A stretch of DNA of 64,000 nt from Ignavibacteria bacterium (GTDB taxonomy: Bacteria > Bacteroidota > Ignavibacteria > Tepidaquicellales > OLB5), in contig JAIOIK010000036.1 of NCBI GenBank assembly GCA_019912545.1, positions 5,159 to 69,158 on the forward strand, read 5' to 3'. The notes below the pieces were generated by a model that saw only the letters and a list, made by a program, of their open reading frames with translations, ran no database searches and was not told the origin of the DNA. This document shows, one piece after another, positions 28,009-62,020 of this stretch (position 1 is the first letter of the stretch; every line of letters begins with the position of its first letter). Made by a program: the position numbers and the translations under genes.

Positions 28009-28009
28009 T

Positions 28010-28082
28010 ACGTCAGTGGCTCAATTGGTAGAGCAGCGGTCTCCAAAACCGCAGGTTGGGGGTTCGAGTCCCTCCTGACGTG
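28010..28082 (+). tRNA. tRNA-Trp (CCA)
   Basis: Acceptor ACGTCAG/CTGACGT, anticodon arm GCGGT-CTCCAAA-ACCGC, T-loop TTCGAGT. Confidence 0.9.
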
Positions 28083-28124
28083 CAACACTATCGTGCAAAA
28101 AGATCGTAAACCGGAGATTTTATA

Positions 28125-31301: not shown

Positions 31302-34300
31302 ATGCCAATAGACATATCTAAATTCAATTTCAACACTGGACGCATTTATCTTTCAAAATCAGGAAAGCATCTTGATGCGCCGGATCTGCTTAACGTGCAG
31401 TTAATGGCCTTCAAAGAATTTTTGCAGGAAGATGTTGCTCCAAATGAACGTAAAGAGACAGGAATACAGGCTGTATTCAAAAGAAATTTCCCTATTACGG
31501 ATTCAAGGGAAACTGCTCTTCTTGAATTTCTTGAATACTACCTTGAAAAACCACAATACTCAATTCGCGAATGCCAGGAACAGGGTTTAACCTATGCGGT
31601 ATCTCTAAAAGTCAAGCTTAGGCTTTCAACTAAGCCTAACAAAGAAGCAAAAGAATATTCCAATGCTGTTGAGCAGGATGTTTATATGGGTAATATTCCT
31701 TATATGTCTCCATACGGAAGTTTTGTTATCAACGGAGCAGAAAGAGTTATAGTATCACAGCTTCACAGGGCGCCGGGCGTAGTATTCAGCGAATCCGTTC
31801 ATCAAAACGGAACGAAGCTTTATTCAGCCAGGATAATCCCGATGAAAGGCTCATGGGTTGAATTTACGACTGATATCAATAACTGCTTATTCGCATATAT
31901 CGATAGAAGAAAGAAATTCCCTGTTACCACAATACTCAGAGCGCTTGGATATTCTACAAATGAAGAGATACTTGAGCTCTTTGGTTTACTTGAAGTTGTT
32001 GACAGGAAAGACTTAAAGAATTTCATGGGTAAACAGCTTAGTGATGATCTGATAGATAAAGAAACCGGAGAATTAGTTGCTGAAAAAGCTGCTGAAGTTG
32101 ACGAAGAACTTATTGAGAAGATCAATAAATCAACAATCACTAAAGTTAAGCTATTTAAATCAGATAGGCCATATGAAGAATCATTAATAGCCAATACCCT
32201 TAATAAAGATGCAGCACAATCTGAAATAGATGCTTTAGAACAGATCTCCGAGCAGTTAAGGCCTGACCAGGATGATGAATCTGCAAAGAACCTTGTAGAT
32301 AAACTTTTCTTCAATGAAAAGAAATATGATCTTGGTGAAGTAGGCAGGTATAAGTTAAATTACAAGCTTCATCTTGATATTGCGCCGGATAAAACTGTAC
32401 TCACTAAGGAAGATATAATTTCAATTATAAATTACCTTGTTGAGCTTGAAGCTGGCAAAAAAGAGATAGATGATATCGATCATCTTGGCAATAGGCGAGT
32501 TCGCTCGATTGGCGAGCAGCTTGCTGCGCAGTTCAACGTAGGACTTGCAAGAATGTCAAGAACTATCAGAGAGAGAATGAGTATTCATGATGAAGAAAAT
32601 ATCACTCCGGGTAACCTTGTAAGTGCAAGAACAATTACAACAGCGCTTGTTTCGTTTTTTGGTACAAGTCAGCTTTCACAGTATATGGATCAAACTAATC
32701 CACTCAGCGAGATGACACATAAACGCAGAGTGAGCGCGCTTGGACCGGGCGGTTTAACTCGTGAAAGAGCAGGATTTGAAGTAAGAGACGTACATTATAC
32801 TCATTACGGCCGACTCTGCCCTATTGAGACTCCTGAAGGTCCGAACATCGGACTTATCTCATCTCTTTGCACACATGCAAGAATAAGCGACTTTGGGTTT
32901 ATTGAAACTCCATACCGTAAAGTTAAGAATGGGAAAGTCCTTAGTGAAATTGATTATCTTTCTGCTGAAAAAGAGGATGATTTTATTATCGCCCAGGCTA
33001 ACGTTGATATGGATGGAAACAAGATAACTGAAAATAAGATCAAGGCAAGATATAAAGGTGACTTCCCTATTGTTAATCCGGAAGAAGTACATTATATGGA
33101 TATTGCTCCAAACCAGATCGTAAGCGCGGCTGCTGCTTTGATCCCCTTCTTAGAGCATGATGATGCTAACCGTGCGCTGATGGGATCCAATATGCAGCGT
33201 CAAGCAGTTCCTCTCTTAAGGCCTGAAGCTCCGCTTGTTGGAACAGGATTTGAAAAGAAAGTTGCAAATGACTCAAGGACTTTGATACTTGCAGAAGCAG
33301 ACGGCGTTGTTGAACATGTTTCCGCAGATAGAATAGTAGTAAAATACGATATAGACAAAAACTCCGACGAGGCTTTACTAAGTTTTGATGACGGAGAGAT
33401 CAAAGAATACAACCTGATAAAGTTCTTAAGAACTAACCAGGATACATCAATAAATCAGAAGCCTATTGTAGCAGTTGGCCAGCGTGTTAAAAAAGGCCAG
33501 TGCCTTGCTGACGGCGCGGCTACTGACAAGGGTGAGTTAGCCCTGGGAAGAAGTGTTCTTGTTGCATTTATGCCATGGCGCGGCTACAACTTTGAAGATG
33601 CTATTGTAATCAGCGAAAGAATCGTAGCTGAAGATGTTTATACCTCACTGCATATTGAAGAATATAACCTTCAGGTAAGAGACACAAAGCGCGGTGAAGA
33701 AGAACTCACCCGTGATATACCAAATGTAAGTGAAGAAGCTACTAAAGATCTTGACGAAGATGGAATCATTCGAATTGGTGCAGAAGTAAAAGAAAACGAT
33801 ATCCTTATTGGCAAGGTAACACCAAAGGGTGAAACCGAACCAACTCCCGAAGAAAAGCTTTTAAGAGCGATATTCGGAGATAAAGCCGGAGATGTGAAAG
33901 ATGCTTCACTGAAAGCGCCTCCCGGAATGAAAGGTATTGTTATAAGTAAAAAACTATTCACAAGGAAACAAAGAGATACCGAAACCAAGAAAGAAGAGAA
34001 GAAAAAACTTGAAAAGCTTGAACAGGATAGGTACGATAGTATAAATGAGCTCAACAGGAAACTAGCTGATAAACTTGGACATATTTTTGACGGTAAAGAC
34101 TCTCTAGGCATTAGGGATATTGACGGTTCTATTGTAATAAGAGGCGGCACAACGATCAAGAAAGATACATTCCAGAAACATCTGGAAAATCCGAATTTCA
34201 GGATCGATAATCTTGACGTAACAAATGATTGGACAAATTCTAAAAAAGGGCAGACGCTTCTTCAGGCTTTGTATAGAAATTTTAAGACAAGGCTGAGTGA

Positions 34301-35090
34301 TATAGAAGAAAAGACTAAACGCAGCAGAAATAAGATAGTGCTTGGCGATGAATTGCCAACAGGTGTTGTTAAAATGGCTAAGGTTTACATTGCAAAGAAG
34401 AAAAAACTTTCAGTTGGTGATAAAATGGCAGGCCGTCATGGTAACAAAGGTGTTGTAGCTAAAATTGTTCCCAGGCAGGATATGCCTTTCTTACCGGATG
34501 GTACGCCGGTTGATATTGTACTCAATCCGCTTGGAGTACCTTCACGTATGAATCTTGGACAGCTTTACGAAACGGCATTGGGCTGGGCAGCGAAGCTTCT
34601 AGGATGTACGTTTGCAACACCGGTGTTTGACGGCGCTTCATTCGAGGATATTACTGACATTCTCGTTCAAACAGGCTTGCCAAGCAATTCACGAAGTATT
34701 TTACATGACGGACAGTCGGGAGACAGGTTCGACCAGATGGTAACTGTTGGCTACATTTACATGATGAAGCTATCGCATCTATCGGACGACAAGATCCACG
34801 CAAGGTCAATAGGACCATACTCACTTATCACACAGCAGCCACTTGGCGGTAAAGCTCAGTTCGGCGGCCAGAGATTCGGAGAGATGGAAGTTTGGGCGCT
34901 TGAGGGATACGGCGCAGCATATACTTTGCAGGAAATACTTACTGTTAAGAGTGATGATGTTGCAGGCCGTTCCAAGACATACGAAACATTGATTAAGGGC
35001 GAAAACACACCTGAACCACAGGTGCCTGAATCATTTAACGTACTTGTAAAAGAACTCCAGGGCCTATGCCTTGATATTTCATTAGACTAA
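31302..35090 (+). CDS. rpoB: DNA-directed RNA polymerase subunit beta
   Basis: 1262 aa with multiple invariant blocks ([45 protein letters not shown]). Confidence 0.98.
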
Positions 35091-35107
35091 TTAAAATCTA
35101 AAATCAT

Positions 35108-38100
35108 ATGTTTTTTAAAAGAGATCAGAAAAAAGTAAAAAAGGTCTTCACAAAGATCGGGATAAATCTTGCATCAACGGATTCCATCATTAGGAATTCA
35201 CACGGCGAGGTACTTAAACCTGAAACTATCAACTACAGAACATTTAAGCCCGATAAAGACGGCTTGTTCTGCGAGAAGATATTCGGGCCGGTTAAGGATT
35301 GGGAATGCCATTGCGGTAAATACAAAGGCATAAGATATCATGGAATAGTATGCGATAGATGCGGTGTAGAAGTAAATCTTAAGAGCTTGAGGCGCGAAAG
35401 AATGGGACATATTTCATTAAGTGTTCCGGTTGTACATATATGGTATTTCCGTTCAACTCCAAGTAAGATCAGTTACCTGCTTGGATTGACGAATAAAGAG
35501 CTTGAAAGGATCATATATTACGAAAATTATGTAATAGTAAATCCGGGCCCAACAGAGTATTCAAAAAATGATCTGTTGACTGAAGATGAGTACCTCAATG
35601 CGCTTAACAATCTGCCGGAAGAACAGGAAGAGCTTGATGATTTTGATCCGAATAAATTTGTTTGCAAAAATGGCGCAGAAGCAGTTAAGGAACTGCTGAG
35701 GAGAGTTGATGTTGACGGAGAAGTTACAAGACTCAGAATACTTCTTTACGAAGAAACTTCGATACAGAAGAAACAGGACCTGATAAAAAGATTAAGGGTA
35801 TTAAAATCCTTCCAGAAAAAAGAAGGAAGGAGACAGAATAAACCTGAGTGGATGATACTGGATGTTGTTCCGGTTATTCCGCCTGAACTCAGGCCTTTGG
35901 TTCCACTTGAAGGAGGAAGATTTGCAACTAGTGATCTTAATGATCTCTATAGAAGGGTTATCATTAGAAATAACCGCTTAAAGAGATTGATTGATATTAA
36001 GGCTCCAGAAGTAATATTGCGTAACGAAAAACGCATGCTTCAGGAAGCTGTTGATGCTCTACTTGATAACTCAAGGCGTGCAACTGCGGTTAAATCAGAA
36101 AACAGACCGCTTAAGTCGCTTTCAGATATACTTAAAGGTAAACAGGGTCGTTTCAGACAGAACCTGCTAGGAAAACGTGTTGATTACTCAGGCCGTGCTG
36201 TTATTGTTGTTGGACCTGAATTGAAATTACATGAGTGCGGTTTACCAAAAGATATGGCCTTAGAGTTGTTTAAGCCTTTTGTAATTAGAAGGCTTATTGA
36301 TAGAGACCTTGTAAAAACAGTAAAGAGTGCAAAGAAGCTGATTGAAAGAAGAACACCTGAAGTTTGGGAAGTACTTGAAAATGTAATAGACGGGCATCCG
36401 ATCATGCTTAACCGTGCCCCCACCCTTCACAGACTTAGCATTCAGGCTTTCCAGCCTATTATTGTTGAAGGTAAAGCTATCCGCCTGCACCCGCTTGTTT
36501 GCCAGGCATTCAATGCGGATTTTGATGGTGATCAGATGGCAGTTCATGTGCCGCTCTCACCGGAAGCACAGCTTGAAGTAAGGGTACTAATGCTATCAAG
36601 CCACAACCTTATGTCACCCCAAAATGGTGAGCCAATTACTGTACCTAATCAGGAAATCGTATTAGGCTGCTATTATTTGACCAAATTTAAAAAAGGTGAT
36701 TTGGGCGAAGATAAGTTGTTTTCAAGTCCTGAAGAAGTTGTAGTTGCGCATAACAACGGCAAAGTTGGCTTGCATGCAAAGATAAAGGTCAGGATCAAAG
36801 GACAAATGATCGAGACAACTGTTGGAAGAGTTCTGTTTAATAATATCGTTCCAGAAGGAGCGGCATTTATTAACGAGCTTCTTACCAAAAAAGGAATTAT
36901 CAAAAATATTGCCAAGGTATTTAAGAGCGTTGGAAACAAAAAGACGGTTGAATTCCTGGATGCATTAAAAGAAACCGGGTTCCGTTTTGCTATGAAAGGC
37001 GGACTCTCTGTAAATCTTGATGATATTGTTATTCCTGAAAGTAAAGACAGGATAATTGAGGCAGCTCAGAAGAAAGTTGATGCTATTGAAAGATCAAGAA
37101 TGAGAGGCTTGATTACTGAAGGCGAAAGATATAATAAAGTTATTGATATATGGACGCATGCTACTAATGATGTGAAAAGCGATCTGATGAGTACACTAAG
37201 GACCTCAAGAGAAGGATTTAACTCACTGCATATGATGATAGACTCAGGTGCAAGAGGTTCCCAGGACCAGGTAAGCCAGCTTGCCGGTATGAGAGGACTT
37301 ATGGCTAAACCCCAGAAAAGTATGACAGGACAGGCTGGAGAAATTATAGAGAACCCGATCATTGCAAACTTCAAAGAAGGTCTTTCAATCCTTGAGTACT
37401 TTATATCTACTCATGGTGCGAGAAAGGGTCTTGCAGATACAGCTTTAAAAACTGCTGATGCCGGTTACCTGACAAGAAAGCTTGTAGATGTATCTCAGGA
37501 TGTAATAATTTCAGAGAATGATTGCGGTACAATCCGCGGACTTACCGTTGAGGCGTTGAAAGATGGCGAGGATATTAAGGAACCGCTGGCAGAGAGGATA
37601 CTTGGACGTGCAGCACTTTCAAACATAGTTGATCCGCTCACAAGAAAAACACTTGTCAAAGCAGGGGAAATCATTGACGAAGATCTTGCTCAGGCAGTTT
37701 CCGAAACTTCGATTCAGTCCGTTGAGATACGCTCGGTTTTAATGTGCGAATCCAGAAAGGGTATTTGCGCAAAATGTTACGGCAGAAACCTGACTACAGG
37801 CAAGCTTGTTGATGTTGGCGAAGCAGTTGGTGTTGTTGCAGCGCAATCAATTGGCGAACCGGGAACACAGCTTACTCTGCGTACTTTCCATATTGGCGGT
37901 ACAGCAAGCAGGATTGTGACTCAATCAAGGATACCAACTAAATTTGCAGGTAAGGTTAAATTCGATAGCATTAAAGCAATAAAATATACCAATCCCGCAT
38001 CGACCGAAGGTGAATTCCACGTTACACATAGCCGTAATGGTATATTACAGATCCTTGATGAAAATAACCGCCTTGTATCAAAATATGACGTTCCTTACGG

Positions 38101-39385
38101 AGCACATTTAATGGTAAATGATGGTCAAATGGTTGATAAGAACCATGTACTATATGAATGGGATCCATACAACTCAGTGATTGTTGCTGAACATACAGGA
38201 ACTATAAGATACCTTGACCTTAAAGAGAATGTAAGTTATGCTGAAGCTCCCGATGAAACAACAGGACATATACAGAAGGTTGTTACAGAATCTAAAGATA
38301 AGACACTCTCCCCTACTATTCAAATTGTTGATTCAAAGGGCGACCTAATGAGTCAGTATATCATCCCGGCACACGCACATTTGCTTGTAAATGATGGTGA
38401 GCCTACATTTGCCGGACAGATACTTGTTAAGATCCCCAGAGATACCGGTAAAACCAGGGATATAACAGGCGGTCTGCCAAGGGTAACAGAGCTCTTCGAA
38501 GCAAGAAGCCCCAACTCTCCATCAGTTGTAACTGAAATTGACGGTATAGTTGAGATTGGTTCGCTTAAGAGAGGTTCACGTGAGGTTAAAGTTAAGACAA
38601 CTGATCTTTCGATCGAGAAAAAATATATGATTCCGGTTGGCAAGCATATACTTGTAAGAGACGGTGATTATGTTAAAGCAGGCGAAGCGCTCTCAAGCGG
38701 CTCGGTTGACCCGCATGATATTCTCAGAATTAAAGGCGTTGCAGATGTACAGGCATACCTTGTTAATGAGATACAGGAAGTTTACAGAATGCAGGGTGTG
38801 AAGATCAACGATAAGCATATTGAAGTTATAGTAAGACAGATGCTTCAGAAGGCAAGAGTAATCGATTCAGGTGATACCATGTTCCTTGAAGGAGATGTTG
38901 TCCACAGATTTAAATTCCTTGTGGAAAACGAAACATTAAGGAACAAGATCATGGTAATGGATAAGGGCGATTCCAATAAAGTGAAGATGTATGATATGCT
39001 GGATAAGAAGAAAGTTAAGGAGCTTAATGCTGAATTAAAGAAAAAAGGCAAAGCACTGATCGAATTCAGAGATGCTAATCCGGCTATTGCAAATCCGGTG
39101 TTGCTGGGTATTACTCAGACTTCATTAACAACAGACAGCTTTATTTCTGCCGCATCATTCCAGGAAACTACGAAGGTGCTAACTGATGCAGCTATTGAAG
39201 GCAAGGTTGATACACTCCAGGGACTGAAAGAAAATGTTATAGTTGGACAGCTTATCCCCGCCGGTACAGGCCTGAAGGCTTACAAGAATCTTATTGTTGT
39301 AAGGAAAGATGAAGCAGTACCAGAAGAAAAACCAAAGAAAGCAAAGAAAAAGAAAAAAGTAAAAGAAACTGCTGATGCCGAGTAA
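35108..39385 (+). CDS. rpoC: DNA-directed RNA polymerase subunit beta'
   Basis: 1425 aa with the Zn-binding [14 protein letters not shown] and catalytic [12 protein letters not shown] motifs. Confidence 0.98.
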
Positions 39386-49825: not shown

Positions 49826-49827
49826 AC

Positions 49828-49850
49828 AAAAGGGGCGTTAGCCCCTTTTG
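49828..49850. terminator. Hairpin terminator between convergent dnaG and the T9SS gene
   Basis: AAAGGGGC-gtta-GCCCCTTT flanked by A- and T-runs. Confidence 0.8.
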
Positions 49851-49891: not shown

Positions 49892-52330
49892 TTACTTAAT
49901 TAACACCATCTTCTTACTCTGGACGAATTCGCCCGCTTCTATTCTATAAAAGTATACGCCTGATGCATAATTTGAGCCATCGAACTTCGCATCATAATAC
50001 CCTGCTTTTTGGAAATCATTCACAAGCGTTTTGACTTCCCTGCCAAGAATATCATAAATCTTCACAATTACTTTTACATCGTTTGGCAATGCATATTTAA
50101 TTGTGATTACGGGGTTAAACGGATTGGGATAATTTTGCGATAAGCTGAAAACATCCGGCACATTATTCAAAATATTCTTGCTGCGTTCTGAATTTTTGCC
50201 AAATACTTTCTTTATATCACTATTAACAATCCCAATATGTTCAAGCAGGTTATGAGGAGTTTGATTCACTACAACTTCCCTTAGTGTTCTTTTTTGTTCA
50301 AGGATCAACTTAGAGATTTCATTGCCATTATTTGCATCATCAATTAATTTACTGATGTTTTTTTCTTGCTTTGTTCTTTCATTTTCAAAGTTATTTTTGA
50401 TAACCTGCTTTACAGTTTCTTTTTGCTCTTTCGTCAATTTAGAATTCCTATCGCCGCCATCTCCCATTTCACTACCACCGGAAAGGCTATCAAGCAAATA
50501 CACTGCCATATAATCCCAATGAGCTACTAAAGCCTCGTATGAATACGGGTTCTCGTTTATGATCTGCTGAAACCCGGTCAAAGCAGAAGCATACTGCCGG
50601 AGGTTTACCTTACATTTCTGAACATGATAGTTGCAGCTTCTAACAAGCGCCGGATTATTTGAATTATTAATAATAACATATAATAGATAGTCTTTTAACG
50701 CAAGGATTCCTGCTTCCGTAGTATCCGTGCTTATTGTTGCCGTATAAAGTTTTGAAACTGCATCAATTATCTGTAAAGAATCAGGCGGATTATCCAAAAT
50801 CCTAATACACATGTTTATTACGTTCGGATAATTTCTTTTCCTCATTTCCATTCCTAACGAATCATATACATTGAGCGGATTACCATTTTTTATCGCAATA
50901 GAGTCTATAATACCATCACCAAAATTTGCCGATGCAAAGCCATCTTCATACTGATTATTGGTACAACTGTACGGAACAAAATTGAATTCCACTTCTTCTC
51001 CCCCGTACCAGTACACAGATTTGACAGGGTCAACGGGATTTTGATTTACTTTAAAACAATTGAGTTTATTATCCAAATCGATGTTTATTTCATTTTGAGG
51101 AAATATCCCGGATAAATGGCTGCTTCCTGAATTGCCGGAAATATTAAGTATGTTATAGCCTGAGTTCATGAAAAAATATGAATTATCAACATATACATTA
51201 CATGAGCCACTACCGGAATTATTTAAACTATTTAAACCAAGAAGATAATCACCCTGGTAACTCATATCAATTACAGTTCCGCTTCCTTCGTTGATACCGT
51301 AAGTATAATCACCAGTGGAAAAAATAACATTATTATATAAACCGATATTGCACGCAAGGGCATTAACGCCATAGTGAAAACCGTTTATGGTATTATTTTG
51401 AATAACACCGCCTGAAACATTCACTATATTTATAGCAGTAGATGAATTTGTATTGGTAGATGTAAATGTATTGCCAGTACAAATAAGCGGAATCTGGACA
51501 CCGCCTGAAGCAATTATGCTGATAGCCGGAAGCTGTGTAGAGCCCAAATTAAAATGATTATTGTTTGAAATATTCAGATTAAAATCACGGGGCAGCCTGC
51601 CAAATGCAGCAAAATAACCAATTCCTCCGCCGTTTTCAGGCGGCGTTACTGAGGAATTCCTGATATCGGTTAAGGTACAGTTAGCTATACTGAGCAAGTA
51701 TGATGTATTATAGTAACCGCCAATATCAGTATTATAAATTTTCACCTGTGCACAATTCTCAAAGGATATTGTCGGTGCATTAAGGCCTTCCATGTATAAA
51801 TTTACCCTGCTTTGATCGCCAGTCAGTTCACCGGACTGGAATGATCCTCCGTTCATGATAATTCTGCCTACATGCGTAAAAGTTATATTGTTCGAAGGGT
51901 ACAGGCTAATATTCTTACCTCCGTTATAAACCGTGTTATAACATTCATAAGCAGGCGTCATGTTAAGATTTTCGTCATAGGCAAGCGTACCTCCATCAAC
52001 CATTACAGGTGCAAGTTTATATAACTTACCTTCACCGGGCAAATACCAACCCAGATCGATCCATGGAGATGCACTTTTATCGAATGTTGTAACAACAGTA
52101 TTATTTTCAAGTTCTACAATTTTCCAATTTGTGAAATATTGTAGATCTGACTGCTTGAAGCTTACTTTAATGTTACGCCTGCCGCCGTTTTCATTAATGT
52201 CAGGGCGGAATGGTGAGCATCTCCTGTTAACTAGCATAAAATAATTTGAATACGGCTCTTCAAATTTTTTGAATACCGCAGCCTGTAAATACCTGCTGGC
52301 GACAGGTTCCTCGATATCGGAAGGCTGCAT
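49892..52330 (-). CDS. Parallel beta-helix repeat protein with a T9SS C-terminal sorting domain; likely the C-terminal part of a larger frame interrupted by TAG at 52409-52411
   Basis: No signal peptide and no RBS at ATG 52330. Contains N/G/I-rich beta-helix-like repeats. C-terminus is NYPNPFNPVITIKY...GVYFYRI...KKMVLIK. Confidence 0.7.
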   Translation of the reverse strand: MQPSDIEEPVASRYLQAAVFKKFEEPYSNYFMLVNRRCSPFRPDINENGGRRNIKVSFKQSDLQYFTNWKIVELENNTVVTTFDKSASPWIDLGWYLPGEGKLYKLAPVMVDGGTLAYDENLNMTPAYECYNTVYNGGKNISLYPSNNITFTHVGRIIMNGGSFQSGELTGDQSRVNLYMEGLNAPTISFENCAQVKIYNTDIGGYYNTSYLLSIANCTLTDIRNSSVTPPENGGGIGYFAAFGRLPRDFNLNISNNNHFNLGSTQLPAISIIASGGVQIPLICTGNTFTSTNTNSSTAINIVNVSGGVIQNNTINGFHYGVNALACNIGLYNNVIFSTGDYTYGINEGSGTVIDMSYQGDYLLGLNSLNNSGSGSCNVYVDNSYFFMNSGYNILNISGNSGSSHLSGIFPQNEINIDLDNKLNCFKVNQNPVDPVKSVYWYGGEEVEFNFVPYSCTNNQYEDGFASANFGDGIIDSIAIKNGNPLNVYDSLGMEMRKRNYPNVINMCIRILDNPPDSLQIIDAVSKLYTATISTDTTEAGILALKDYLLYVIINNSNNPALVRSCNYHVQKCKVNLRQYASALTGFQQIINENPYSYEALVAHWDYMAVYLLDSLSGGSEMGDGGDRNSKLTKEQKETVKQVIKNNFENERTKQEKNISKLIDDANNGNEISKLILEQKRTLREVVVNQTPHNLLEHIGIVNSDIKKVFGKNSERSKNILNNVPDVFSLSQNYPNPFNPVITIKYALPNDVKVIVKIYDILGREVKTLVNDFQKAGYYDAKFDGSNYASGVYFYRIEAGEFVQSKKMVLIK

Positions 52331-52408
52331 TAAATCTTCAATTTCAGGTGCATAGGTTTTTATATCCGTAAAATATGTTTGGGTTAGAAGATCATTCCGC
52401 TCAAGCCG

Positions 52409-54523
52409 CTAAATGTATGAATGCCGGTTGGCATTATCAAAACTCATTAATGTAGGTCCCCATGCAGTAAGTTTTTGATTGATGCTTTTTATCTTATCCC
52501 ATTTTTGCTGGCCATAAGCATTAGTTAAGCGGGGATTTAATGTTAACGGCTGTGGTGTCTGCTGTCCGGAAAAAGGATTTGAAGTACTACATGGAACCGG
52601 ATTCACCAGGCCCCTTGCATAATTACCGGATCCTAAGCAGCCAAATCCACCGTACCAAAAATACAATGTCCCTTTTGCTCCATAGGTCACAGGTAATAAT
52701 GTTGTCATTTCCATCTCTTCATTAGTTGGCTCTCTTAATGCCTCCTCTCCGGTTGTGTACCATAAATGTGTTTGAGGCATATTAATATAGCTGATATTGT
52801 TCATTTTAGATAACGTATCCATCGTTTTTACATACCATGTAAATTGCCCTTTTTTAGTGTGAATATTAGTGCCTGCCGCATCAAGATGTTCCTGCAGCCA
52901 GCTTTCATAAACCGCAGGCGAAAACGGTTCTCCCAGCCTTCCTTCTGATGTATTATAATTGCTTAATGGCAGCGTATTAGGTACTCTTGAATCATTGTAA
53001 TTTGTGCCAGCTATTACACCTGTAAGCGCATATGGCTCTGAAAGAACCTGGGATTCGCCAACTCTGTTTATAAGATATTCAGTAACGTGCCGGGCGCTTA
53101 CTTTATTGTTGCCTACATACTCATATGGCAGATGCAGCAGATACTGCTGTAAATTAACCATTGTCATTAAAGAAAGATTCGGATTGCCGGAATACAGTTT
53201 CAATTTCTGGCTTACATATGCCATGCACGGTATATGGTTAAACTCAAATTCTTCTATGTAAAACTTTAAAGGCGAATTGTTAGTATTTCCAAGTGATGCC
53301 TCCCATTGGAGCCAGTTATCATATTGTACCCAGTTTTGATTAAGCGGGTTATTACTCAAAAGATCATTAGCCACATCATTGTCAACTCTTACATAATCTA
53401 TCCACATATTGCATGTTCCGTACCAGTAAACCTTTATATCCATTTTGTTATCGCCATCAGTTGGGTAGTTTCCGCGTGAATTAAATGCCCAGCCGCCATC
53501 ATTTGGGTTAAATGCATTTGTTGTGTATGGATATACTTTATCAATTATTAATTCGTTATCTAAACCCCAAAAATTAAATTCTTCTTTGTAATTTCCATCA
53601 TAGTTTCCAGTCGTATTTTTAAAATGTTTTGCTCTTAATATTACGCTTTTAATTGTATTCCCGTTATAGTTTATTACATCAATACGGCAAATAGGCTCTT
53701 CGTAATTTACCGGATTATCAATAAAAATTTTATCTGCCCTAATGCTGGGTTTAATATACCAGTCATATACATTATCACCCGGCGCCTGTCCAATAGGGCT
53801 TCGTGTATTGCACTGTTCACTGTTTGTCATTAGCCTTCTTACCACAAAACCCTGCCCGTTTGGCGCATTAAACGGGTCAACCAGGCATCGCCTTACCCAC
53901 TGGTTATTGCCGTATTGAGAATTATCCGGCCAATCTCCGCCGCTTTGTCCGGTTACATCATGGTTATTAAAAGCGTAAAACCAAAGGTCAGGGTTTAAGT
54001 TTGTTGCTTCACACTGGTAATCGCTCCGCTGCCCGAATGCAAGCTGATCTATCTTAGGCCGCTGCATTAAAGTCCGCATATTATTCTGCAGATTAATACC
54101 CAGCCTGCCCGTAACAACACCGGAGTATGTATTATATGTGTTGTATAGGTTATCAACAGGGTTTTGGGCATACCAATCCCACCCTGAAGAGTTAGCATCG
54201 TTATACCTGTCAACTCCCGCATATTTATGCCAGACATTTAATCCAAGATCCGAAAGGTTGTTATAAGTTAAATCATGTGCACAATCCATTGCCCCTAGAA
54301 GATATTCATTGCTGATATTTCCTTCAGGAGGCGGAAACATCCGTATAGAATTTTGTGAGCTAAAGCCTGATGCGGTGATATTTTGTTGGGTTGATGGGGT
54401 ATAATTACGGAATGCGAATGCAATCGTCATTATCCCCAGAATTACCGAAATTGTCAGTCTTAGCCTGATCTTTTCGATAAGTTCTGTTTTTCTGCCCGTG
54501 GCAGATTTCATTTCTTTCAACAT
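52409..54523 (-). CDS. Signal-anchored secreted protein (possibly glycoside-hydrolase-like); likely the N-terminal part of the same frame
   Basis: N-terminal TM/signal anchor LTISVILGIMTIAFAF. The protein has no T9SS tail. It ends at a TAG that is in frame with the downstream ORF. Confidence 0.7.
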   Translation of the reverse strand: MLKEMKSATGRKTELIEKIRLRLTISVILGIMTIAFAFRNYTPSTQQNITASGFSSQNSIRMFPPPEGNISNEYLLGAMDCAHDLTYNNLSDLGLNVWHKYAGVDRYNDANSSGWDWYAQNPVDNLYNTYNTYSGVVTGRLGINLQNNMRTLMQRPKIDQLAFGQRSDYQCEATNLNPDLWFYAFNNHDVTGQSGGDWPDNSQYGNNQWVRRCLVDPFNAPNGQGFVVRRLMTNSEQCNTRSPIGQAPGDNVYDWYIKPSIRADKIFIDNPVNYEEPICRIDVINYNGNTIKSVILRAKHFKNTTGNYDGNYKEEFNFWGLDNELIIDKVYPYTTNAFNPNDGGWAFNSRGNYPTDGDNKMDIKVYWYGTCNMWIDYVRVDNDVANDLLSNNPLNQNWVQYDNWLQWEASLGNTNNSPLKFYIEEFEFNHIPCMAYVSQKLKLYSGNPNLSLMTMVNLQQYLLHLPYEYVGNNKVSARHVTEYLINRVGESQVLSEPYALTGVIAGTNYNDSRVPNTLPLSNYNTSEGRLGEPFSPAVYESWLQEHLDAAGTNIHTKKGQFTWYVKTMDTLSKMNNISYINMPQTHLWYTTGEEALREPTNEEMEMTTLLPVTYGAKGTLYFWYGGFGCLGSGNYARGLVNPVPCSTSNPFSGQQTPQPLTLNPRLTNAYGQQKWDKIKSINQKLTAWGPTLMSFDNANRHSYI

Positions 54524-54714: not shown

Positions 54715-56166
54715 TTACTTAACTAGCAGCATCTTTTTTGTGCTTAAAATTTTTCCATCAATATATAATGAGTAGAAATATACTCCTGAAGAATAATTAC
54801 TGCCATTAAAATTAACTTCATAAGTTCCTGCATTCTGTTTTTGATTTACAAGTTCTGATATTTGTCTGCCCTGAATGTCATATACAACTATCTTTAAATC
54901 TGATAATCTGTTAATCTGAAATCTGATAATCGTAGCTGGATTAAATGGATTCGGGTAATTTTGCTCAAGCTTAAACTCTTTTGGGATTTCTGAGCTTATT
55001 TGATTAACCGGGAAAAAAACGGTTGTATCACCTCCAGTTGTTGTATGAATACCCGAGTTTACAGCATATGCCCACCCATTTAATTTGTTTACAAATTTGC
55101 TATGATAATAATTAAAAATATGAATACTAGTATCAGGTAGCTGAAAACCCCAATTTATTCCGCCATTTGTTGTCTTGTATATTATTCCCTTAATACCAGC
55201 GTAATTAATTTGACCACCTACACCCCAGATTGTATCCCTGTTGACATTAGAGAATTTACCCATAAGACTGTTAACCAGGTTACCACCTGAAGGCAGTGTT
55301 TGGGCAACCCAGTTTAACCCGCCATCGGTTGTTTTTTTCATTGTTCCATATGATTTCCATCCGGTTAAACTATCTGAAAAATACATATCTGTAAAACCTG
55401 TATCATTCAGGCTGAACCAGTTCATTCCGCTATTGGTAGTTTTAAATAAACGACCAGGTGCAGATGAAAATTGCCCGGCAAAACCTATTCTTGAATTAAA
55501 CATATATATATGGTCGGGGTTTAATCCTGGAAGTGTTACCTGCCGTACCCAGTTCAACCCGCCATTTGATGTGAAAAATACACCGCCGGAAGATGGGCTG
55601 CTCATTGCAAACCAAATTGTATCTTCATTCAATACATGAATGTCATCCTGGTATGTATCAAAAGGAGTATTAACGTTATTCCAATTTACTCCCCCGTTCG
55701 TAGTTTTAAGGATTGAAAAATTAAAATTATCTTCGATATATCCTCCTACGTAACCAGTATTCTGATTCAGGAAAAATAAACATGTAAAAAGACTGGTATC
55801 AGTATTATTATAAATAATGTTCCAGTTATTTCCGCTGTTTGTTGTTTTAAGAATTTTAGGGTAATCGTTTACTGAAAGTCTTGATGTTATTGCATAACCT
55901 GTTAAACTGTCTGTGAATGTCATATCAACTATTGTTCTTCCTCCCAGATCAGGCAAAAACTGCTGCTGCCAGTTGCCTATCATAACATCACTAAAGTTAA
56001 AACCGATTATAAAAAATAATATGGAAAGATAGAAGATAAATGAAGAGACCCATTCGTTTCGCTCAGGGCAGATTTTATCAGGTTTAAAAAGTTTGTAAAG
56101 TTTACTATGTTTTGAGTGAGTTGAGTGACTTGTATCAGCAGAATATTTTGGTTTTTCCGGGTGCAT
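54715..56166 (-). CDS. BNR/Ycf48-like propeller protein with an N-terminal signal anchor and a T9SS C-terminal domain (paralog A)
   Basis: N-terminus MHPEKPKYSADTSHSTHS... followed by TM helix FIFYLSILFFIIGF, then T(T/S)N(G/S)G(x)NW repeats. C-terminus is NYPNPFNPATIIRF...GVYFYSL...KKMLLVK. Confidence 0.85.
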   Translation of the reverse strand: MHPEKPKYSADTSHSTHSKHSKLYKLFKPDKICPERNEWVSSFIFYLSILFFIIGFNFSDVMIGNWQQQFLPDLGGRTIVDMTFTDSLTGYAITSRLSVNDYPKILKTTNSGNNWNIIYNNTDTSLFTCLFFLNQNTGYVGGYIEDNFNFSILKTTNGGVNWNNVNTPFDTYQDDIHVLNEDTIWFAMSSPSSGGVFFTSNGGLNWVRQVTLPGLNPDHIYMFNSRIGFAGQFSSAPGRLFKTTNSGMNWFSLNDTGFTDMYFSDSLTGWKSYGTMKKTTDGGLNWVAQTLPSGGNLVNSLMGKFSNVNRDTIWGVGGQINYAGIKGIIYKTTNGGINWGFQLPDTSIHIFNYYHSKFVNKLNGWAYAVNSGIHTTTGGDTTVFFPVNQISSEIPKEFKLEQNYPNPFNPATIIRFQINRLSDLKIVVYDIQGRQISELVNQKQNAGTYEVNFNGSNYSSGVYFYSLYIDGKILSTKKMLLVK

Positions 56167-56287: not shown

Positions 56288-57715
56288 TTATTTCAATAAT
56301 ATCATCTTCTTTGTTTCTGCGTATAATTGGTTTGTTTTATCATCTGTTACTTCCATTCTGTAAAAATAAATTCCCGAAGCGTAATCACTTCCAGAAAAAT
56401 CAACATCATAAGTTCCTGCATTTTGTTCTTGATCGATCAAATCAATAATGTGTTTCCCTGTAACATCAAAAACCGATAATCTTATTTTTGTTCTGTTATT
56501 TCTTATTTGATATTTGATATTTGTGTTTGGGTTGAATGGATTAGGATAATTTTGGAATAACTTAAACTCATTCGGTATTTCTGTGCTTAAAGGAACAACG
56601 GGTGTAAAAAACGTATCATTGCCGCCTGTTGTTGTATGAATACCAGAACTATAATTATCATAAGCCCAGCCATTGCGTTTATTAACAAAATCAACCAAAT
56701 AATACTCGCCAATATGGATCGATGTATCAGGTAACTGGAATAACCAGTTATTACCTCCATTGCTTGTATATAATAATATTCCTCTGAATTGTAAGTTTAG
56801 TAACAATGCTCCTCCAACACCCCAGATTGTGTCCTTGTTTATATTATCAAAAGCTCTAATGCCGCTTGTTATAATATTGCCGCCAAATGGTAGTGTTTGT
56901 CTGGTCCAGTTCATACCTCCATTGGTCGTTTTTTTCATCCAACCCATTGACATCCAGCCTGTTAAGCTATCTGTAAAATACATATCGGTAAAACCTGTAT
57001 CATTCAGACTGAACCAGTTCATACCGCTGTTTGTAGTTTTATATAAGCGTGGTGCTCCCGAAAACTGACCTGCAAAGCCTATTCTGGTGTTATACATATA
57101 AATGTGGTCAGGATTTGCGGGTCCAAGACTTGCCTGCCGTACCCAGTTCAACCCGCCGTTTGATGTGAAAAATACACCGCCGGAAGAGGGGCTGCTGACT
57201 GCTAAATATATCGTATCTTCGCTTATAATCTGCATATCATCAATTTCAAAAAAGGGATCAGGAGTATTTAAAGAGAACCAATTAATTCCGCTATTTGTTG
57301 TTTTAACTAATTGAGTACTTCCATTGTATAAATAAGCTCCGCAGCAATATCCCGTGTTCGTATTAATAAATTTAATTTTATTCATTCCCGGAAACTGCGC
57401 AGTCCCGCTAAACTGTACAGACCAATCATCTCCTCTGTTCGTCGTTCTAATAATAAATACAGTATCATTTTGTGTTGTATAGGGCGTCACAGCCCAACCG
57501 TTTAAACTATCAATAAAACATATATCTGATATTGACCTTCCATTCAGATTGGGCAAAAACTGCTGTTGCCAGTTGCCAACCATAACATCTGAAAAGTTGA
57601 AGCCGATTATGAAAAGTAATATGGAGAGGTAGAAGATGAAGGAAGAAAGTGTATTGAGTGCGGAGTGAGTTGAGTCTGATGAGTCGGGGCTGTATTTTGG
57701 GTTTTCGGGGTGCAT
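56288..57715 (-). CDS. BNR/Ycf48-like propeller protein with an N-terminal signal anchor and a T9SS C-terminal domain (paralog B)
   Basis: N-terminus MHPENPKYSPDSSDSTHS... followed by TM helix FIFYLSILLFIIGF. Same architecture as paralog A. Confidence 0.85.
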   Translation of the reverse strand: MHPENPKYSPDSSDSTHSALNTLSSFIFYLSILLFIIGFNFSDVMVGNWQQQFLPNLNGRSISDICFIDSLNGWAVTPYTTQNDTVFIIRTTNRGDDWSVQFSGTAQFPGMNKIKFINTNTGYCCGAYLYNGSTQLVKTTNSGINWFSLNTPDPFFEIDDMQIISEDTIYLAVSSPSSGGVFFTSNGGLNWVRQASLGPANPDHIYMYNTRIGFAGQFSGAPRLYKTTNSGMNWFSLNDTGFTDMYFTDSLTGWMSMGWMKKTTNGGMNWTRQTLPFGGNIITSGIRAFDNINKDTIWGVGGALLLNLQFRGILLYTSNGGNNWLFQLPDTSIHIGEYYLVDFVNKRNGWAYDNYSSGIHTTTGGNDTFFTPVVPLSTEIPNEFKLFQNYPNPFNPNTNIKYQIRNNRTKIRLSVFDVTGKHIIDLIDQEQNAGTYDVDFSGSDYASGIYFYRMEVTDDKTNQLYAETKKMILLK

Positions 57716-57886: not shown

Positions 57887-59017
57887 TTACTGCAATACCG
57901 CTACCGGTATCTTCTTCCTTGATTTCTTTTTTGGCAGCTTGTCTATATTCCTGCCGCGCTTGAGCACAATATGCTCTTCCTGCACATCGGGATATTCGAA
58001 TACTTCGTTCTTGTAATTGCGGAGTATTATTTTCTCCTTATCGCGTGCTAAAACATAATCCGGCAGTAACGGAATTTTCCCGCCGCCGCCCGGCGCATCA
58101 ATTACAAATTGCGGTACTGCAAGTCCGCTGATATGCCCGCGTAGGTTATCCATTATTTCCAAGCCTACATCAATTGGTGTGCGGAAATGATTTGCCCCCT
58201 TGGTCAGGTCTGCCTGGTATATGTAATACGGCCTTACTCTTATTGCAAGCAGCTTTTTCATAAGCTCCTTCATTACCTCAGGGTCGTCATTAACTCCCTT
58301 CAGCAGTACTGTCTGGCATCCTACAGGCACTCCGGCATTAACAAGCATTTCGCATGCCTTAGTACTCTCCGGTGTTATCTCCCATGGATGGTTAAAATGC
58401 GTGTTTACGTAAATCGGGTGATATTTCTTTATCATTTCGCAAAGCTGCGGCGTAATTCTTTGCGGCAGAACGCACGGCATCTTAGTTCCAAGTCTAATGA
58501 TCTGTATATGCGGTATCTGGCGAAGCCTCGCAAGCACTTTTTCAAGCATTGCATCGGTCAGCATAAGCGGGTCACCACCGGAAAGTATCACATCGTTGAT
58601 CTCCGTATGAGTCTCGAGGTAATTAAATGCAGCCTCAAGCTCGCGCATATTGATCTTGCTGGAATCCCCCACTTTTCTTTTTCTCGTACAAAAGCGGCAA
58701 TAAAGCCCGCACTGGCTGGTAGTTAAAAACAGTGCACGGTCAGGGTAACGGTGAGTAATATTGGGAACAGGGCTCATTTCCTCCTCGTTTAACGGGTCTT
58801 CTGCTGCATCGATATCATAGAGCTCTACCTCTTCGGGCACTGCCTGAAGCCAGATAGGGTCTCCTGGATATCTGATCAGGCTGAGATAATAAGGATTTAT
58901 CCTTGCCTGGAAGAAATCGTCAAGCTTTTCTGCAACTTCCCTGTTGATTGAGAATTTCTCGACAAGCTGATCTACTGAGCTAATGCTTTGTTTTAGCAGC
59001 TGTTGCCAGAGTTCCAT
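57887..59017 (-). CDS. KamA-family radical SAM enzyme (lysine 2,3-aminomutase-like)
   Basis: 376 aa with the CGLYCRFCTRKR (CxxxCxxC) cluster motif, ILSGGDPL, and an LIRYPGDPIWLQAVP N-terminus typical of KamA/AblA. Confidence 0.88.
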   Translation of the reverse strand: MELWQQLLKQSISSVDQLVEKFSINREVAEKLDDFFQARINPYYLSLIRYPGDPIWLQAVPEEVELYDIDAAEDPLNEEEMSPVPNITHRYPDRALFLTTSQCGLYCRFCTRKRKVGDSSKINMRELEAAFNYLETHTEINDVILSGGDPLMLTDAMLEKVLARLRQIPHIQIIRLGTKMPCVLPQRITPQLCEMIKKYHPIYVNTHFNHPWEITPESTKACEMLVNAGVPVGCQTVLLKGVNDDPEVMKELMKKLLAIRVRPYYIYQADLTKGANHFRTPIDVGLEIMDNLRGHISGLAVPQFVIDAPGGGGKIPLLPDYVLARDKEKIILRNYKNEVFEYPDVQEEHIVLKRGRNIDKLPKKKSRKKIPVAVLQ

Positions 59018-59124
59018 AAAATATTGTCCTTGTTTAGTTTTTGGATTCCCGTCCTGCTCTTATGGCAGAGCTAAGCGGGTTTCACAGGGCACCGCGCATC
59101 ACTTTGTGAGCCGGAAGCCTTACC

Positions 59125-59613
59125 TCAGGAGGCTTTCTCCTTAAGGTATTTGCGGTAGATGTAAAGGTCATCCCCGTCTCTGTAAAAATCTTTGATGATA
59201 GTCTGCTCGTCATAGCCGTTTTTCGTGTAGAACTTCCGTTCATTTTCGTATTCGGCTTTTCCGCTCGTTTCTATCAGTATAATCTTGCCTCCGCTTTTTG
59301 TCAGATCCTCTTCCATATGTTTCACCAGTTTGCTTCCGGTTCCCTTTCCGTGAATGCGGAAATCTACGGCTATCCAGTATAAGTCATACGTGTGATCTGT
59401 CAGCGGCCTTTTTCCATAGCAAATGTAACCTATAGGCTTGCTGCTGTTTTCATCTTCGCTTACATAAATAATATAATCAGTCTGCTTTTCATCGTTTAAA
59501 TATATGTCAATGAGCTCCATTGCAACTTTGATCTCTTCTTCATTAAAGTGTCCTGTGCCTTCAAGAATATCCCTGATCTCATCTCTGTCGCTTCGTATTA
59601 ACTTCCTTATCAT
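59125..59613 (-). CDS. GNAT-family N-acetyltransferase
   Basis: 162 aa with a HGKGTGSKLVKHME acetyl-CoA-binding motif-A-like segment. Its position next to kamA parallels ablB/yodP. Confidence 0.8.
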   Translation of the reverse strand: MIRKLIRSDRDEIRDILEGTGHFNEEEIKVAMELIDIYLNDEKQTDYIIYVSEDENSSKPIGYICYGKRPLTDHTYDLYWIAVDFRIHGKGTGSKLVKHMEEDLTKSGGKIILIETSGKAEYENERKFYTKNGYDEQTIIKDFYRDGDDLYIYRKYLKEKAS

Positions 59614-59624
59614 TTCCTTTATTC

Positions 59625-59700
59625 ACAGACAGGAAGTCTGTGCTACTATTTTTCTTTCACAGCAGAAATGCCTGCCTGCTGCAGGCAGGTCTGTACTACT
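59625..59700. repeat. Two tandem hairpin units in the GNAT/ATP-grasp spacer
   Basis: CACAGAC-aggaa-GTCTGTGCTACT, then CACAGCAGAAATG-CCTGCC-tgctgca-GGCAGG-TCTGTACTACT. Both units end in GTCTGTRCTACT. Confidence 0.7.
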
Positions 59701-59736
59701 AATTAAAATCCGCAATCAACAATCCAAAATCGTAAA

Positions 59737-60804
59737 TTATTTGACTCCCCACCGCTTGAGCGAAAAACCGATAATCTGCTGGATCAGATAGCTATATTCC
59801 CAGCCATGTGCCTTTGCGCTTCGGGTAAACCCGGTATCCTCGGGTACGTCGCTTGCAATATCTGGATTCGGATTCATCTCAAGCACATACGGCACGCCGT
59901 CTTTCAATCTCATATCAACTCTTGCATAATCAGCTGCTCCAAGAAGCCTGTAAACTTTTTTGGCAGTATCCTGTATGACTTTTACCTCGGCATCACTTAA
60001 ATTCTGTGCCGGGCAAACTGCCTTTGTATTTTCAAATTCAACCGTCTTGTACATCCATTTGCTGTTATAGCTGATTATCTTGGGATAATCATCCGGCAAT
60101 CCCGTAAAATCTATTTCACTTATGGGGAAAGTGATCGGTTCTTCATTTCCCACAACCGAAACGTTTATTTCCCTGCCTTCGATGTATTCTTCAACAAGCG
60201 CAGGCTGTTTGTGCTCATCAAGCACATATTCAATTCGTTTACGAAGAGCAGCTTCGTTAGTAACTACCGATTCGTTTGTAATGCCTATGCTTGCATCTTC
60301 CCGTGATGGCTTCACTATCATGGGGAACTTATGGCCGTTAAGATGAAAGCTTGATGTACTTGTAACAAAATGTTTCGCAGTCGGTATTCCGTTTTGATTC
60401 AGAATCGATTTCACCAAAGGTTTGTTTAATGCCAGACCCAGTGTAAATGCCCGTGAGCCTGTGTATGGGATCTTAAACAACTCAAATAATCCCGCAATGT
60501 TCATTTCCTGTGTCGGATCGCCGTCAACGCTTTCGCAAAGATTAAAAATAATATCCGGTCTATTTTCGTTCAGTTCCGTGATCAGCTTATTTATATCCAG
60601 CGCAACAGGAATTATCTTTGTATTATGTTCCAGCGGAGCCAAAGCGCGTTCAACGCTTTTTACTTCATCCAGAACGCCATATTCGCTCATATCGATCGCT
60701 TCATCAAGGGAATCAATATCAACATCCGTGCCCTCATAGATCGGTCCCTGCGCATATTGCACCGGGTCATTGAATATAATCGATATGTTAAGTTTTTTAC
60801 TCAT
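59737..60804 (-). CDS. ATP-grasp ligase, D-Ala-D-Ala-ligase-like family (paralog 2)
   Basis: 355 aa with FNLCE..IAGLFELFKIPYTGS, MIVKPSREDASIG, VEEYIEGREINV and LEMNPNPD. It lacks the GEDG motif of bona fide Ddl. Confidence 0.8.
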   Translation of the reverse strand: MSKKLNISIIFNDPVQYAQGPIYEGTDVDIDSLDEAIDMSEYGVLDEVKSVERALAPLEHNTKIIPVALDINKLITELNENRPDIIFNLCESVDGDPTQEMNIAGLFELFKIPYTGSRAFTLGLALNKPLVKSILNQNGIPTAKHFVTSTSSFHLNGHKFPMIVKPSREDASIGITNESVVTNEAALRKRIEYVLDEHKQPALVEEYIEGREINVSVVGNEEPITFPISEIDFTGLPDDYPKIISYNSKWMYKTVEFENTKAVCPAQNLSDAEVKVIQDTAKKVYRLLGAADYARVDMRLKDGVPYVLEMNPNPDIASDVPEDTGFTRSAKAHGWEYSYLIQQIIGFSLKRWGVK

Positions 60805-60845
60805 TTATTATTGCCAGCGAATCTGTATCTGTGTTCCTCTTTTTG

Positions 60846-60886
60846 CGAGGAGCGAAGCGACCTGCCTCCAGCAGGCAGGCGAAGCA
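60846..60886. repeat. CCTGCC-tccagca-GGCAGG hairpin flanked by direct GCGAAGC repeats
   Basis: GCGAAGC occurs at 60852-60858 and 60879-60885, bracketing the hairpin at 60861-60879. Confidence 0.65.
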
Positions 60887-60937
60887 ATTTTATTAATTGA
60901 TCTTCTATTTATTTTTTGCTTTTTTACTTTTGCCTTT

Positions 60938-62020
60938 TTACTTACCCAAACCGTATCTTTCGATTGCCCCGTTCAAAACAGTCTGAATGAGTCCATCATA
61001 ATCAATTCCAACTTCCCTTGCCGCTTTTGGAAAACATGAATTATCATCCGGATTAGGAAGAACTCCCGGCAGCGGGTTTATTTCAATTATATGCGGATTC
61101 TCATTCCTGTCACACCTAACATCCATTCTCGCCCAGTCTTTGATACGCAATGCGTTATAAGCATTCTTACAGATCTCTTCTATTTTCAATCTCAGCTTAT
61201 CACTGATAACTGCCGGACATGTAAATATATCCAGCTTACTTTCTCTTGTATCAAAAAACCATTTGACCTCATATGAGTAAATTTTGGGAAAATCAGCAGG
61301 GAGGCATTCAAGATTTATCTCAACTATCGGTAAAACCCGCAGCTTATCACCATTTCCGATGAGTGCAACGGTAAATTCCCTTCCGTCAAGAAAATCCTCT
61401 ATTATAGAGTGCTGGCTGTAATCCTGTTTAATTCTTGTTATTTCGCGATTTAAGGATTCTTTGTCGTAAACAACGCTACTATTATATATGCCTTTTGATG
61501 AGCCTTCGTGCAAAGGCTTCACAAAAGCGGGATATTTGACCTTTGGGTATCCGTTTACAATGCTATCGGTTATGAAAAAACCCGGATTTGGCACTCCGTA
61601 GTACGAAAGGATCTCCTTACAGCGTGATTTATCATGGCAATTGCCAATTGTTATGGGATCGCTTGCAGTGTAGGGAATATTAAGCATTTCAAGCATTGCG
61701 GGAATGTGTGACTCCCTCGACGCTCCGCCAAAACCTTCGGCCATATTAAAAACTATGTCCGGCTTTTCGGTTCTCAGTCTTTCAAAAGCATTTTCATCAG
61801 CTTCTATTCTGATAACTTCGTGCCCTGCTTTCTTAATTGCGCTTTCAACTGCAGAGATGGTTTCTTCATCATCCCACTCAGCATACTCATCACTAAGACG
61901 GCTGGAATAATTGCTGACCAAATTCTCGTCAACATATTTTTCCTGCTGAACTTTTTTTTCCTGTCCTTCGGAAATCGGCTCAGCTTCTTTTTTTATATTG
62001 TAAGTAAATCCTACGCGCAA
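60938..62020 (-). CDS. ATP-grasp ligase, D-Ala-D-Ala-ligase-like family (paralog 1)
   Basis: 360 aa with FNMAEG..IPAMLEMLNIPYTAS, AFVKPLHEGSSKG, IEDFLDGREFTV and IEINPLPG. Confidence 0.8.
   Translation of the reverse strand: MRVGFTYNIKKEAEPISEGQEKKVQQEKYVDENLVSNYSSRLSDEYAEWDDEETISAVESAIKKAGHEVIRIEADENAFERLRTEKPDIVFNMAEGFGGASRESHIPAMLEMLNIPYTASDPITIGNCHDKSRCKEILSYYGVPNPGFFITDSIVNGYPKVKYPAFVKPLHEGSSKGIYNSSVVYDKESLNREITRIKQDYSQHSIIEDFLDGREFTVALIGNGDKLRVLPIVEINLECLPADFPKIYSYEVKWFFDTRESKLDIFTCPAVISDKLRLKIEEICKNAYNALRIKDWARMDVRCDRNENPHIIEINPLPGVLPNPDDNSCFPKAAREVGIDYDGLIQTVLNGAIERYGLGK

Follow-up and report, generated by a model that had tools for sequence, protein, structure and literature searches.

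A single in-frame TAG interrupts a predicted type IX secretion cargo gene in an Ignavibacteria metagenome-assembled genome

Two open reading frames in one frame

The DNA under study is a 64,000-nucleotide stretch of contig JAIOIK010000036.1 from an Ignavibacteria bacterium, hereafter called the window. At 49892-54523, two long open reading frames (ORFs) follow one another on the minus strand and, read from the sequence, share one frame. The ATG at 54523 is followed by 704 sense codons and the TAG at 52411-52409, and then by 26 sense codons (RLERNDLLTQTYFTDIKTYAPEIEDL), the ATG at 52330, 812 codons and the TAA at 49894-49892. The initial annotation had described this layout as a single cargo gene of the type IX secretion system (T9SS) split by the TAG; its coordinates, the 26 stop-free codons and the in-frame ATG were all borne out. 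The features that define the gene, with residues numbered along the fused protein, are as follows.

49892-54523, minus strand: entire interrupted gene, 1,543 codons if the TAG is counted, followed by the terminal TAA, as delimited by alignment with the homolog P0001
54413-54523, minus strand: N-terminal Sec-type signal peptide, residues 1-37, read from the sequence without a signal-peptide predictor
52409-52411, minus strand: in-frame TAG, codon 705, in the context ATT TAG CGG, in place of a conserved Tyr codon
49904-50131, minus strand: type A T9SS sorting domain at the C terminus (C-terminal domain, CTD), residues 1465-1540, matched by PF18962 and TIGR04183

The N-terminal ORF starts like a signal peptide, with a basic n-region, the h-region LTISVILGIMTIAFAF and an A-F-A motif. 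Translation may begin at M1 or M5, and the homologs begin with equivalent hydrophobic N termini. The N terminus of the C-terminal ORF (MQPSDIEEPVASRY...) has no hydrophobic signal, and its type A sorting domain lies at residues 734-809 of that ORF (PF18962, 4e-11; TIGR04183, 5e-12). These observations agree with the earlier placement of a signal on the N-terminal half and of a T9SS domain on a C-terminal half without a signal peptide. A further argument, that the C-terminal ORF has no ribosome binding site, proved weak and not diagnostic: of the window's 49 long ORFs, only 13 are preceded by a Shine-Dalgarno-like motif, and one is likewise lacking at the true start, 54523.

When all six frames of the window were scanned for stop-free stretches of at least 120 codons, only two pairs were found to be split by a single stop. 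The other pair, 17518-18729 and 18742-20079, was rejected as a split gene, since its first member ends in a complete sorting domain. Between the two halves of the cargo gene, the search for an internal promoter or terminator gave only weak consensus matches, fewer than in shuffled sequences. The 49 long ORFs end in TAA (32), TAG (12) or TGA (5), at a GC content of 38%.

Homologs, domains and short forms

The fused sequence, with X at the stop, was used as the query in homolog searches. More than 30 homologs of 1,500 to 1,630 amino acids, from Ignavibacteria and Bacteroidota-like metagenome-assembled genomes (MAGs) and from metagenomes, span both halves and cover 95-99% of the query end to end. 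The best of them, P0001 (1,529 amino acids; 71% identity), aligned as one segment over fused residues 19-1543. No homolog is divided where the TAG stands, and the downstream start lacks conservation. The column of the TAG falls in the homolog motif HSYI-Y-RL. It is occupied by Tyr in 26 of 32 long homologs, or 44 of 56 if short forms are included, and by a stop in none of the 56; the non-Tyr homologs have L, H, F, C or V, plus one gap.

The same picture was obtained at the codon level. In the codon alignment with positions 8001-12590 of L001, the locus encoding P0001, TAC stands opposite the TAG and an Asn codon opposite the downstream ATG. TAC is also present at this site in L002 and L003, the two distant orthologs that a degenerate junction pattern retrieved from metagenome contigs. 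The 26 codons after the TAG encode a conserved stretch of the protein (consensus SYIYRLxxERxxLxxxTYFxxIxTY), and the structural model places it at the first helix and first strand of a beta-sandwich. The initial annotation was thus right that they contain no stop, but they are not a linker.

Because the homologs span both halves, carry a sense codon at the TAG site and, in the nearest relative, have TAC there, it is strongly supported on comparative grounds that the two ORFs are one gene, in which the conserved Tyr705 codon (TAY) changed to TAG by a single third-position transversion. This upholds the proposal of one gene with a nonsense codon, now with at least 30 full-length homologs and a sense codon at the site in 56 of 56 aligned sequences. 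The ortholog alignment that had been suggested as a check was run, and it gave a sense codon at the TAG site throughout; the orthologs are not consistently two genes. Judged by its alignments, the whole gene is an ortholog of the single-chain T9SS cargo proteins of 1,500 to 1,630 amino acids in Ignavibacteria. The 812-amino-acid "protein" deposited as MBZ0201974.1 at NCBI is an annotation artifact and not a gene, because its ATG stands opposite Asn in the P0001 relative and lies inside the folded beta-sandwich. The ORF at 52409-54523 (704 amino acids) and MBZ0201974.1 (812 amino acids) should be merged as one interrupted gene.

We consider it effectively refuted that the halves are two truly separate genes or that TAG is reassigned throughout the genome, including to pyrrolysine. 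The ORF layout taken alone would permit such a reading, and nearby lie a KamA-type radical SAM gene and two ATP-grasp genes with a superficial likeness to pylB and pylC. However, no homolog is broken here and the downstream start is unconserved, and the break borders on a domain without which the minimal unit of the family would be incomplete. NCBIfam assigns the neighbors in question to KamA/AblA-like and D-Ala-D-Ala-ligase families, not to PylB or PylC. Moreover, TAG ends 11 other long ORFs in the window, and two of these were checked against profiles: those of lysine 6-transaminase and FolC reach to within a few residues of the TAG. Neither pyl genes nor a suppressor tRNA with the anticodon CUA were found in the 64 kb, where the tRNAs are Tyr-GTA, Thr, Gly and Trp. 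On this evidence from 64 kb of the genome, recoding of TAG throughout the genome was rejected.

The domain order of the gene is signal peptide, glycoside hydrolase (GH)-like barrel, beta-sandwich, beta-helix, helical region and type A CTD. The sorting domain is the only part of the protein with a match in Pfam, NCBIfam or the PDB sequences, and the domains between it and the signal peptide were read from predicted structures as follows.

52412-54340, minus strand: GH-like beta/alpha barrel, approximately residues 62-704, from the AlphaFold model of the homolog P0059
52007-52408, minus strand: beta-sandwich, residues 706-839, from the models; includes the segment 52331-52408 and the nonconserved ATG at 52330
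50891-51991, minus strand: right-handed beta-helix, approximately residues 845-1211, from the model of the post-stop segment
50201-50869, minus strand: alpha-helical repeats followed by long helices, approximately residues 1219-1441, from the secondary structure of the model

The model of P0059, a natural short homolog of 852 amino acids, has a predicted local distance difference test score (pLDDT) of 86 and a predicted template modeling score (pTM) of 0.88. It comprises a large beta/alpha core and then an all-beta domain at residues 703-851. Foldseek matched it in the PDB best to GH27 (E value, 5e-6) and then to GH140, GH35/42, GH13, GH30 and GH44, with low TM-scores (0.2-0.35) and 8-12% identity. 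The predicted N-terminal module thus has the two-domain layout of enzymes with a GH barrel and a C-terminal beta-sandwich, such as the GH27 enzyme Abp (4nx0), the GH13 amylases and GH35/42, but the likeness is at the fold level only and no sequence family matches. Accordingly, the passenger belongs to no described GH family of CAZy by sequence and shows a distant fold likeness only. The TAG maps to residue 707 of P0059, at the junction of barrel and beta-sandwich, and the downstream ATG to approximately residue 738. The beta-sandwich completes the minimal module of the family.

The window's own post-stop segment (838 amino acids; model m1a1da1c53717) was predicted with a pLDDT of 84. In its own numbering, the beta-sandwich occupies residues 1-134, the beta-helix 140-506, the helical repeats 514-642, the long helices 660-736 and the sorting domain 755-836. 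Fold matches of the beta-helix are weak (PL6 alginate lyase, GH28, phage tailspikes and a depolymerase; E values, 2e-3 to 1e-1). As to the helical repeats, one homolog has been named "TPR repeat protein" by JGI. Each fold match of the CTD, to the mirolase CTD, to PorZ and to the CTD of RemA within the T9SS translocon, had a probability of 1.0. By sequence and by fold, the gene thus shares an N-terminal signal peptide and a CTD of about 80 residues with type A cargo (TIGR04183/PF18962) such as RemA and mirolase. It differs from such cargo in its passenger, which is an unannotated family of GH-like barrel, beta-sandwich and beta-helix. Furthermore, signal peptide and CTD are coupled in the intact orthologs, whereas the stop uncouples them in the window copy.

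The family comprises 521 clusters at 50% identity with an E value of at most 1e-3, and 192 with an E value of at most 1e-30. It is dominated by short forms, P0054 and P0059 among them, of approximately 760-920 amino acids that have a signal peptide and no CTD; the CTD-bearing forms of approximately 1,550 amino acids are a subset. Two short forms seen in their genomic context (L084, 6001-8559; L085, 6001-8760) are complete genes followed by unrelated genes. According to the end points of the alignments, short forms typically run 130-160 residues past the TAG position. In the first search, none of 64 family matches ended before fused residue 837; a few family entries do end earlier (e.g., P0079, 688 amino acids), possibly by truncation of the contig. 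According to the initial annotation, each half would need the other for secretion and sorting by the T9SS. The need for a CTD was overstated there, as most family members have none. Nevertheless, the 704-amino-acid product is an abnormal truncation without a domain of the minimal unit, because nearly all short forms retain the beta-sandwich of about 135 residues that the TAG removes.

Age and nature of the TAG

The 838 codons after the TAG contain no further stop or frameshift. Of the possible single substitutions in this part, 4.6% would create a stop; under neutrality, the chance that it stayed open would be about 5% after some 64 substitutions (2.5% divergence). Since the downstream codons are undamaged, the change to TAG is either very recent or not real. 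In line with this, dN against L001 is much the same on either side of the stop, at 0.181 downstream and 0.185 upstream. A dN/dS ratio was unobtainable, as synonymous sites are saturated (proportion of synonymous differences, pS, 0.78) against L001, the sole DNA relative used (71% amino acid identity).

Constraint was also compared at the protein level. Where a column is at least 85% conserved among the other members, the window sequence deviates in 0 of 94 positions upstream and in 9 of 131 downstream, and the intact P0001 in 0 of 94 and 8 of 131, respectively. A relative-rate count gave 51-55 window-specific replacements against 31-39 downstream of the TAG, and 36-45 against 40-43 upstream. 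This mild downstream-only excess hints, if weakly, at a short period of relaxed constraint.

Read-through would give the stop a function: either a near-cognate tRNA or a suppressor tRNA-Tyr(CUA) encoded elsewhere would decode the TAG often enough to be of use, so that a short CTD-less protein and a little full-length cargo are made in a tuned ratio. We regard this as improbable. Several features fit it. The base at +4 is C, in contrast to T (seven cases) or A (four cases) at the 11 natural TAG terminators of the window; the downstream ORF is intact; and the family exists naturally in CTD-less and CTD-bearing forms. Moreover, proteomics of Salmonella has revealed low-level read-through of premature UAG codons, on average to about 10% of the intact homologs, with C enriched at +4 (PMC9122581). 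However, the +4 C here is simply the first base of a conserved Arg codon, and the base at -1 is T, which accounts for 0% of the Salmonella read-through cases. None of the 56 homologs, the nearest included, has a stop at this site. The RNA after the TAG forms no stable structure: the fold of 52290-52420 has a z score of -0.73, and 48 of 200 shuffled sequences fold as well. TAG acts as a genuine terminator in the window, as judged by the lysine 6-transaminase and FolC genes, and no tRNA with a CUA anticodon is present there. Finally, the truncation point lies about 135 residues before the ends of the natural short forms.

The closest parallel for leakiness is provided by the "pseudo-pseudogenes" of Salmonella Typhi and Paratyphi A (Feng et al. 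2022, PMC9122581), in which a premature UAG followed by C, as found here, is the class most often leaky. The cases differ in that ours comes from a different phylum and is known at the level of sequence, in that a U at -1 is disfavored there, and in that the change here is a transversion in a Tyr codon while most of theirs are C>T and G>A transitions. By this analogy, a trickle of full-length protein may still be made. Programmed read-through, one of the three causes put forward by the initial annotation, found nothing in its favor; of its other two, recent pseudogenization and sequencing or assembly error, either may hold. We think it very improbable that the TAG is a real leaky stop by which a CTD-bearing long form has come to yield mostly CTD-less product with a trickle of full-length protein. 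If it were, the leaky TAG would capture a transition between the two architectures of the family, the long T9SS-sorted form and the short CTD-less form beside a propeller partner.

On balance, we favor, with some reserve, a real and very young null allele of a dispensable accessory gene, fixed or polymorphic in the sampled population. A single third-position transversion would have turned the conserved Tyr705 codon (TAY) into TAG, and translation would stop at residue 704. With its signal peptide retained, the product would presumably reach the periplasm via Sec, but it would be devoid of the beta-sandwich, the beta-helix and the CTD needed for T9SS export; most likely it would be unstable, inactive or mislocalized. 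Reinitiation at the ATG at 52330 would yield a cytoplasmic fragment that starts inside a domain, and read-through would be at most adventitious and low, as for any premature stop. Large accessory secreted genes are typical targets of pseudogenization. Several observations speak for a real allele: the gene is the sole broken one among the 49 long ORFs of the window, the site has no homopolymer or repeat, and the family includes a real disruption, an IS21 insertion in L090. In-frame stops in bacteria are common and short-lived, and for the most part they last no longer than polymorphisms within a population do (Belinky et al. 2021, PMC7918605). The young stops described there resemble the present one, being single in-frame stops in otherwise intact genes, one step from a sense codon and without decay, but they are shared by at least two genomes, while ours is seen in one MAG.

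Other observations weigh against a real allele. The window derives from a MAG, as does the record of the C-terminal half, MBZ0201974.1 ("MAG: Ignavibacteria bacterium"), and the species did not turn up in any other assembly. The TAG may therefore be a miscall or the consensus of a minor allele. An artifact, too, would leave the downstream half perfectly intact. Two relatives carry frameshift splits that are possibly assembly errors, one of them on a 4x contig. In addition, the relative-rate excess is weak and noisy (chi-square, 2.7-5.5) and is confounded by the mosaic evolution of the family. Searches for further copies added no second sample: the exact 704-amino-acid sequence is absent from the protein collection, the C-terminal half is present only as the NCBI MAG protein, and a scan of genome contigs, dominated by the unspecific CTD motif QNYPNPFN, gave 80 T9SS cargo loci that are unrelated and no orthologs.

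The corresponding alternative is that the organism has TAY and an intact gene for 1,543 amino acids, the G at 52409 (minus strand) being miscalled or a minor strain variant that was picked when the MAG was assembled. We hold this to be possible, though rather unlikely. It predicts the wholly undamaged downstream half, and it suits the MAG origin of the window and the frameshift splits of family members in other assemblies, the one at 4x coverage among them. Many internal-stop pseudogenes have been traced to assembly (Cooley and Wright 2024, PMC11017572); only about 70% of them are common to different assemblers, and MEGAHIT yields the most. The present stop resembles such spurious stops in being an isolated internal stop in an otherwise perfect coding sequence from a draft or metagenomic assembly, but in contrast to them the window gives no hint of an assembly that is poor throughout, with no other broken gene among the 49 long ORFs.

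Further points speak against an artifact. The assembly is not generally error-ridden here, given one split gene in 64 kb, and the site offers no homopolymer or repeat to provoke an error. In consensus sequences, a wrong base is less common than an indel error. Nor would an artifact be expected to yield the small excess of lineage-specific changes that is confined to the downstream part. Because the source is a MAG and the species has not been sampled a second time, a real allele and an assembly error are inseparable at present. Our estimates for the readings considered here, taken together, fall slightly short of certainty. In any case, the finding is an ordinary instance of a well-known kind, the single nonsense interruption of a conserved gene, and a reminder that single internal stops in MAGs are uninterpretable without the reads.

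Neighboring genes and the propeller partner

Several features around the cargo gene and elsewhere in the window were recorded.

49827-49850, no strand assigned: GC-rich hairpin between the convergent dnaG (end at 49825) and the cargo gene (end at 49892), likely their shared terminator
54715-56166, minus strand: upstream partner, a 483-amino-acid BNR/Ycf48-like propeller with a T9SS CTD, from profile matches
56288-57715, minus strand: second partner paralog, 475 amino acids with a T9SS CTD, 77% identical to the partner in L001
57887-62020, minus strand: KamA-family aminomutase, small GNAT acetyltransferase and two tandem D-Ala-D-Ala-ligase-like ATP-grasp genes
15869-20079, plus strand: secreted run of a reprolysin-like M12 metallopeptidase with CTD, a Ycf48/BNR propeller with CTD and an SBBP-repeat propeller
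27091-28083, plus strand: tRNA cluster of Tyr(GTA), Thr(GGT), Gly(TCC) and Trp(CCA)

In the cluster at 57887-62020, the KamA-family gene scores below the equivalog cutoffs for AblA and for glutamate and arginine 2,3-aminomutase, and the ATP-grasp genes score below those for Ddl. The cluster may encode a pathway for a beta-amino-acid peptide or solute and is not a pyl cluster. The last two genes of the run at 15869-20079 share a frame, with one TAA (18727-18729) between them; they are two real, separate genes. The tRNA cluster stands upstream of a region with ORFs of 1,262 and 1,425 codons (31302-39385), which, judged by size and order alone, may be rpoB and rpoC. In the protein database, MBZ0201974.1 belongs to a 90%-identity cluster whose representative is an unrelated 37-amino-acid ENA peptide (P0077), which looks like a clustering oddity; for this reason the window's own C-terminal half was not returned by the protein search.

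Disrupted family members were also noted in public assemblies. L088 (7435-7483) and L089 (8383-8392) have frameshift splits, one of which lies just before the CTD on the contig with 4x coverage, and L090 (7940-10282) is interrupted by the IS21 element, comprising IstB and a transposase. The two parts of the cargo gene diverge unequally from their relatives: pS against L001 is 0.59 in the N-terminal part and rises to 0.78 after the TAG, and the identity of P0002 to the window sequence is 74.5% in the N-terminal and 42.8% in the C-terminal part. This suggests that the modules of the gene have different histories, by recombination or domain shuffling.

In every locus inspected, a BNR/Ycf48-like propeller protein of approximately 450-485 amino acids with a CTD is encoded directly upstream of the family member. 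Such partners lie at 6559-7923 in L001, at 2918-4300 and 4326-5708 in L002, and at 4476-5885 in L084; in L085 and L086, the pair of propeller and GH-like gene is repeated at least three times in tandem. The propeller and the GH-like gene form a conserved two-gene cassette. One possibility is that CTD-less forms are exported by hitchhiking on their CTD-bearing neighbor. What is new here is an unannotated GH-like, T9SS-associated family with a conserved propeller-CTD partner in Ignavibacteria and relatives. This family context is of more value than the stop itself, and the gene pairing makes the export and the substrate of the CTD-less members testable.

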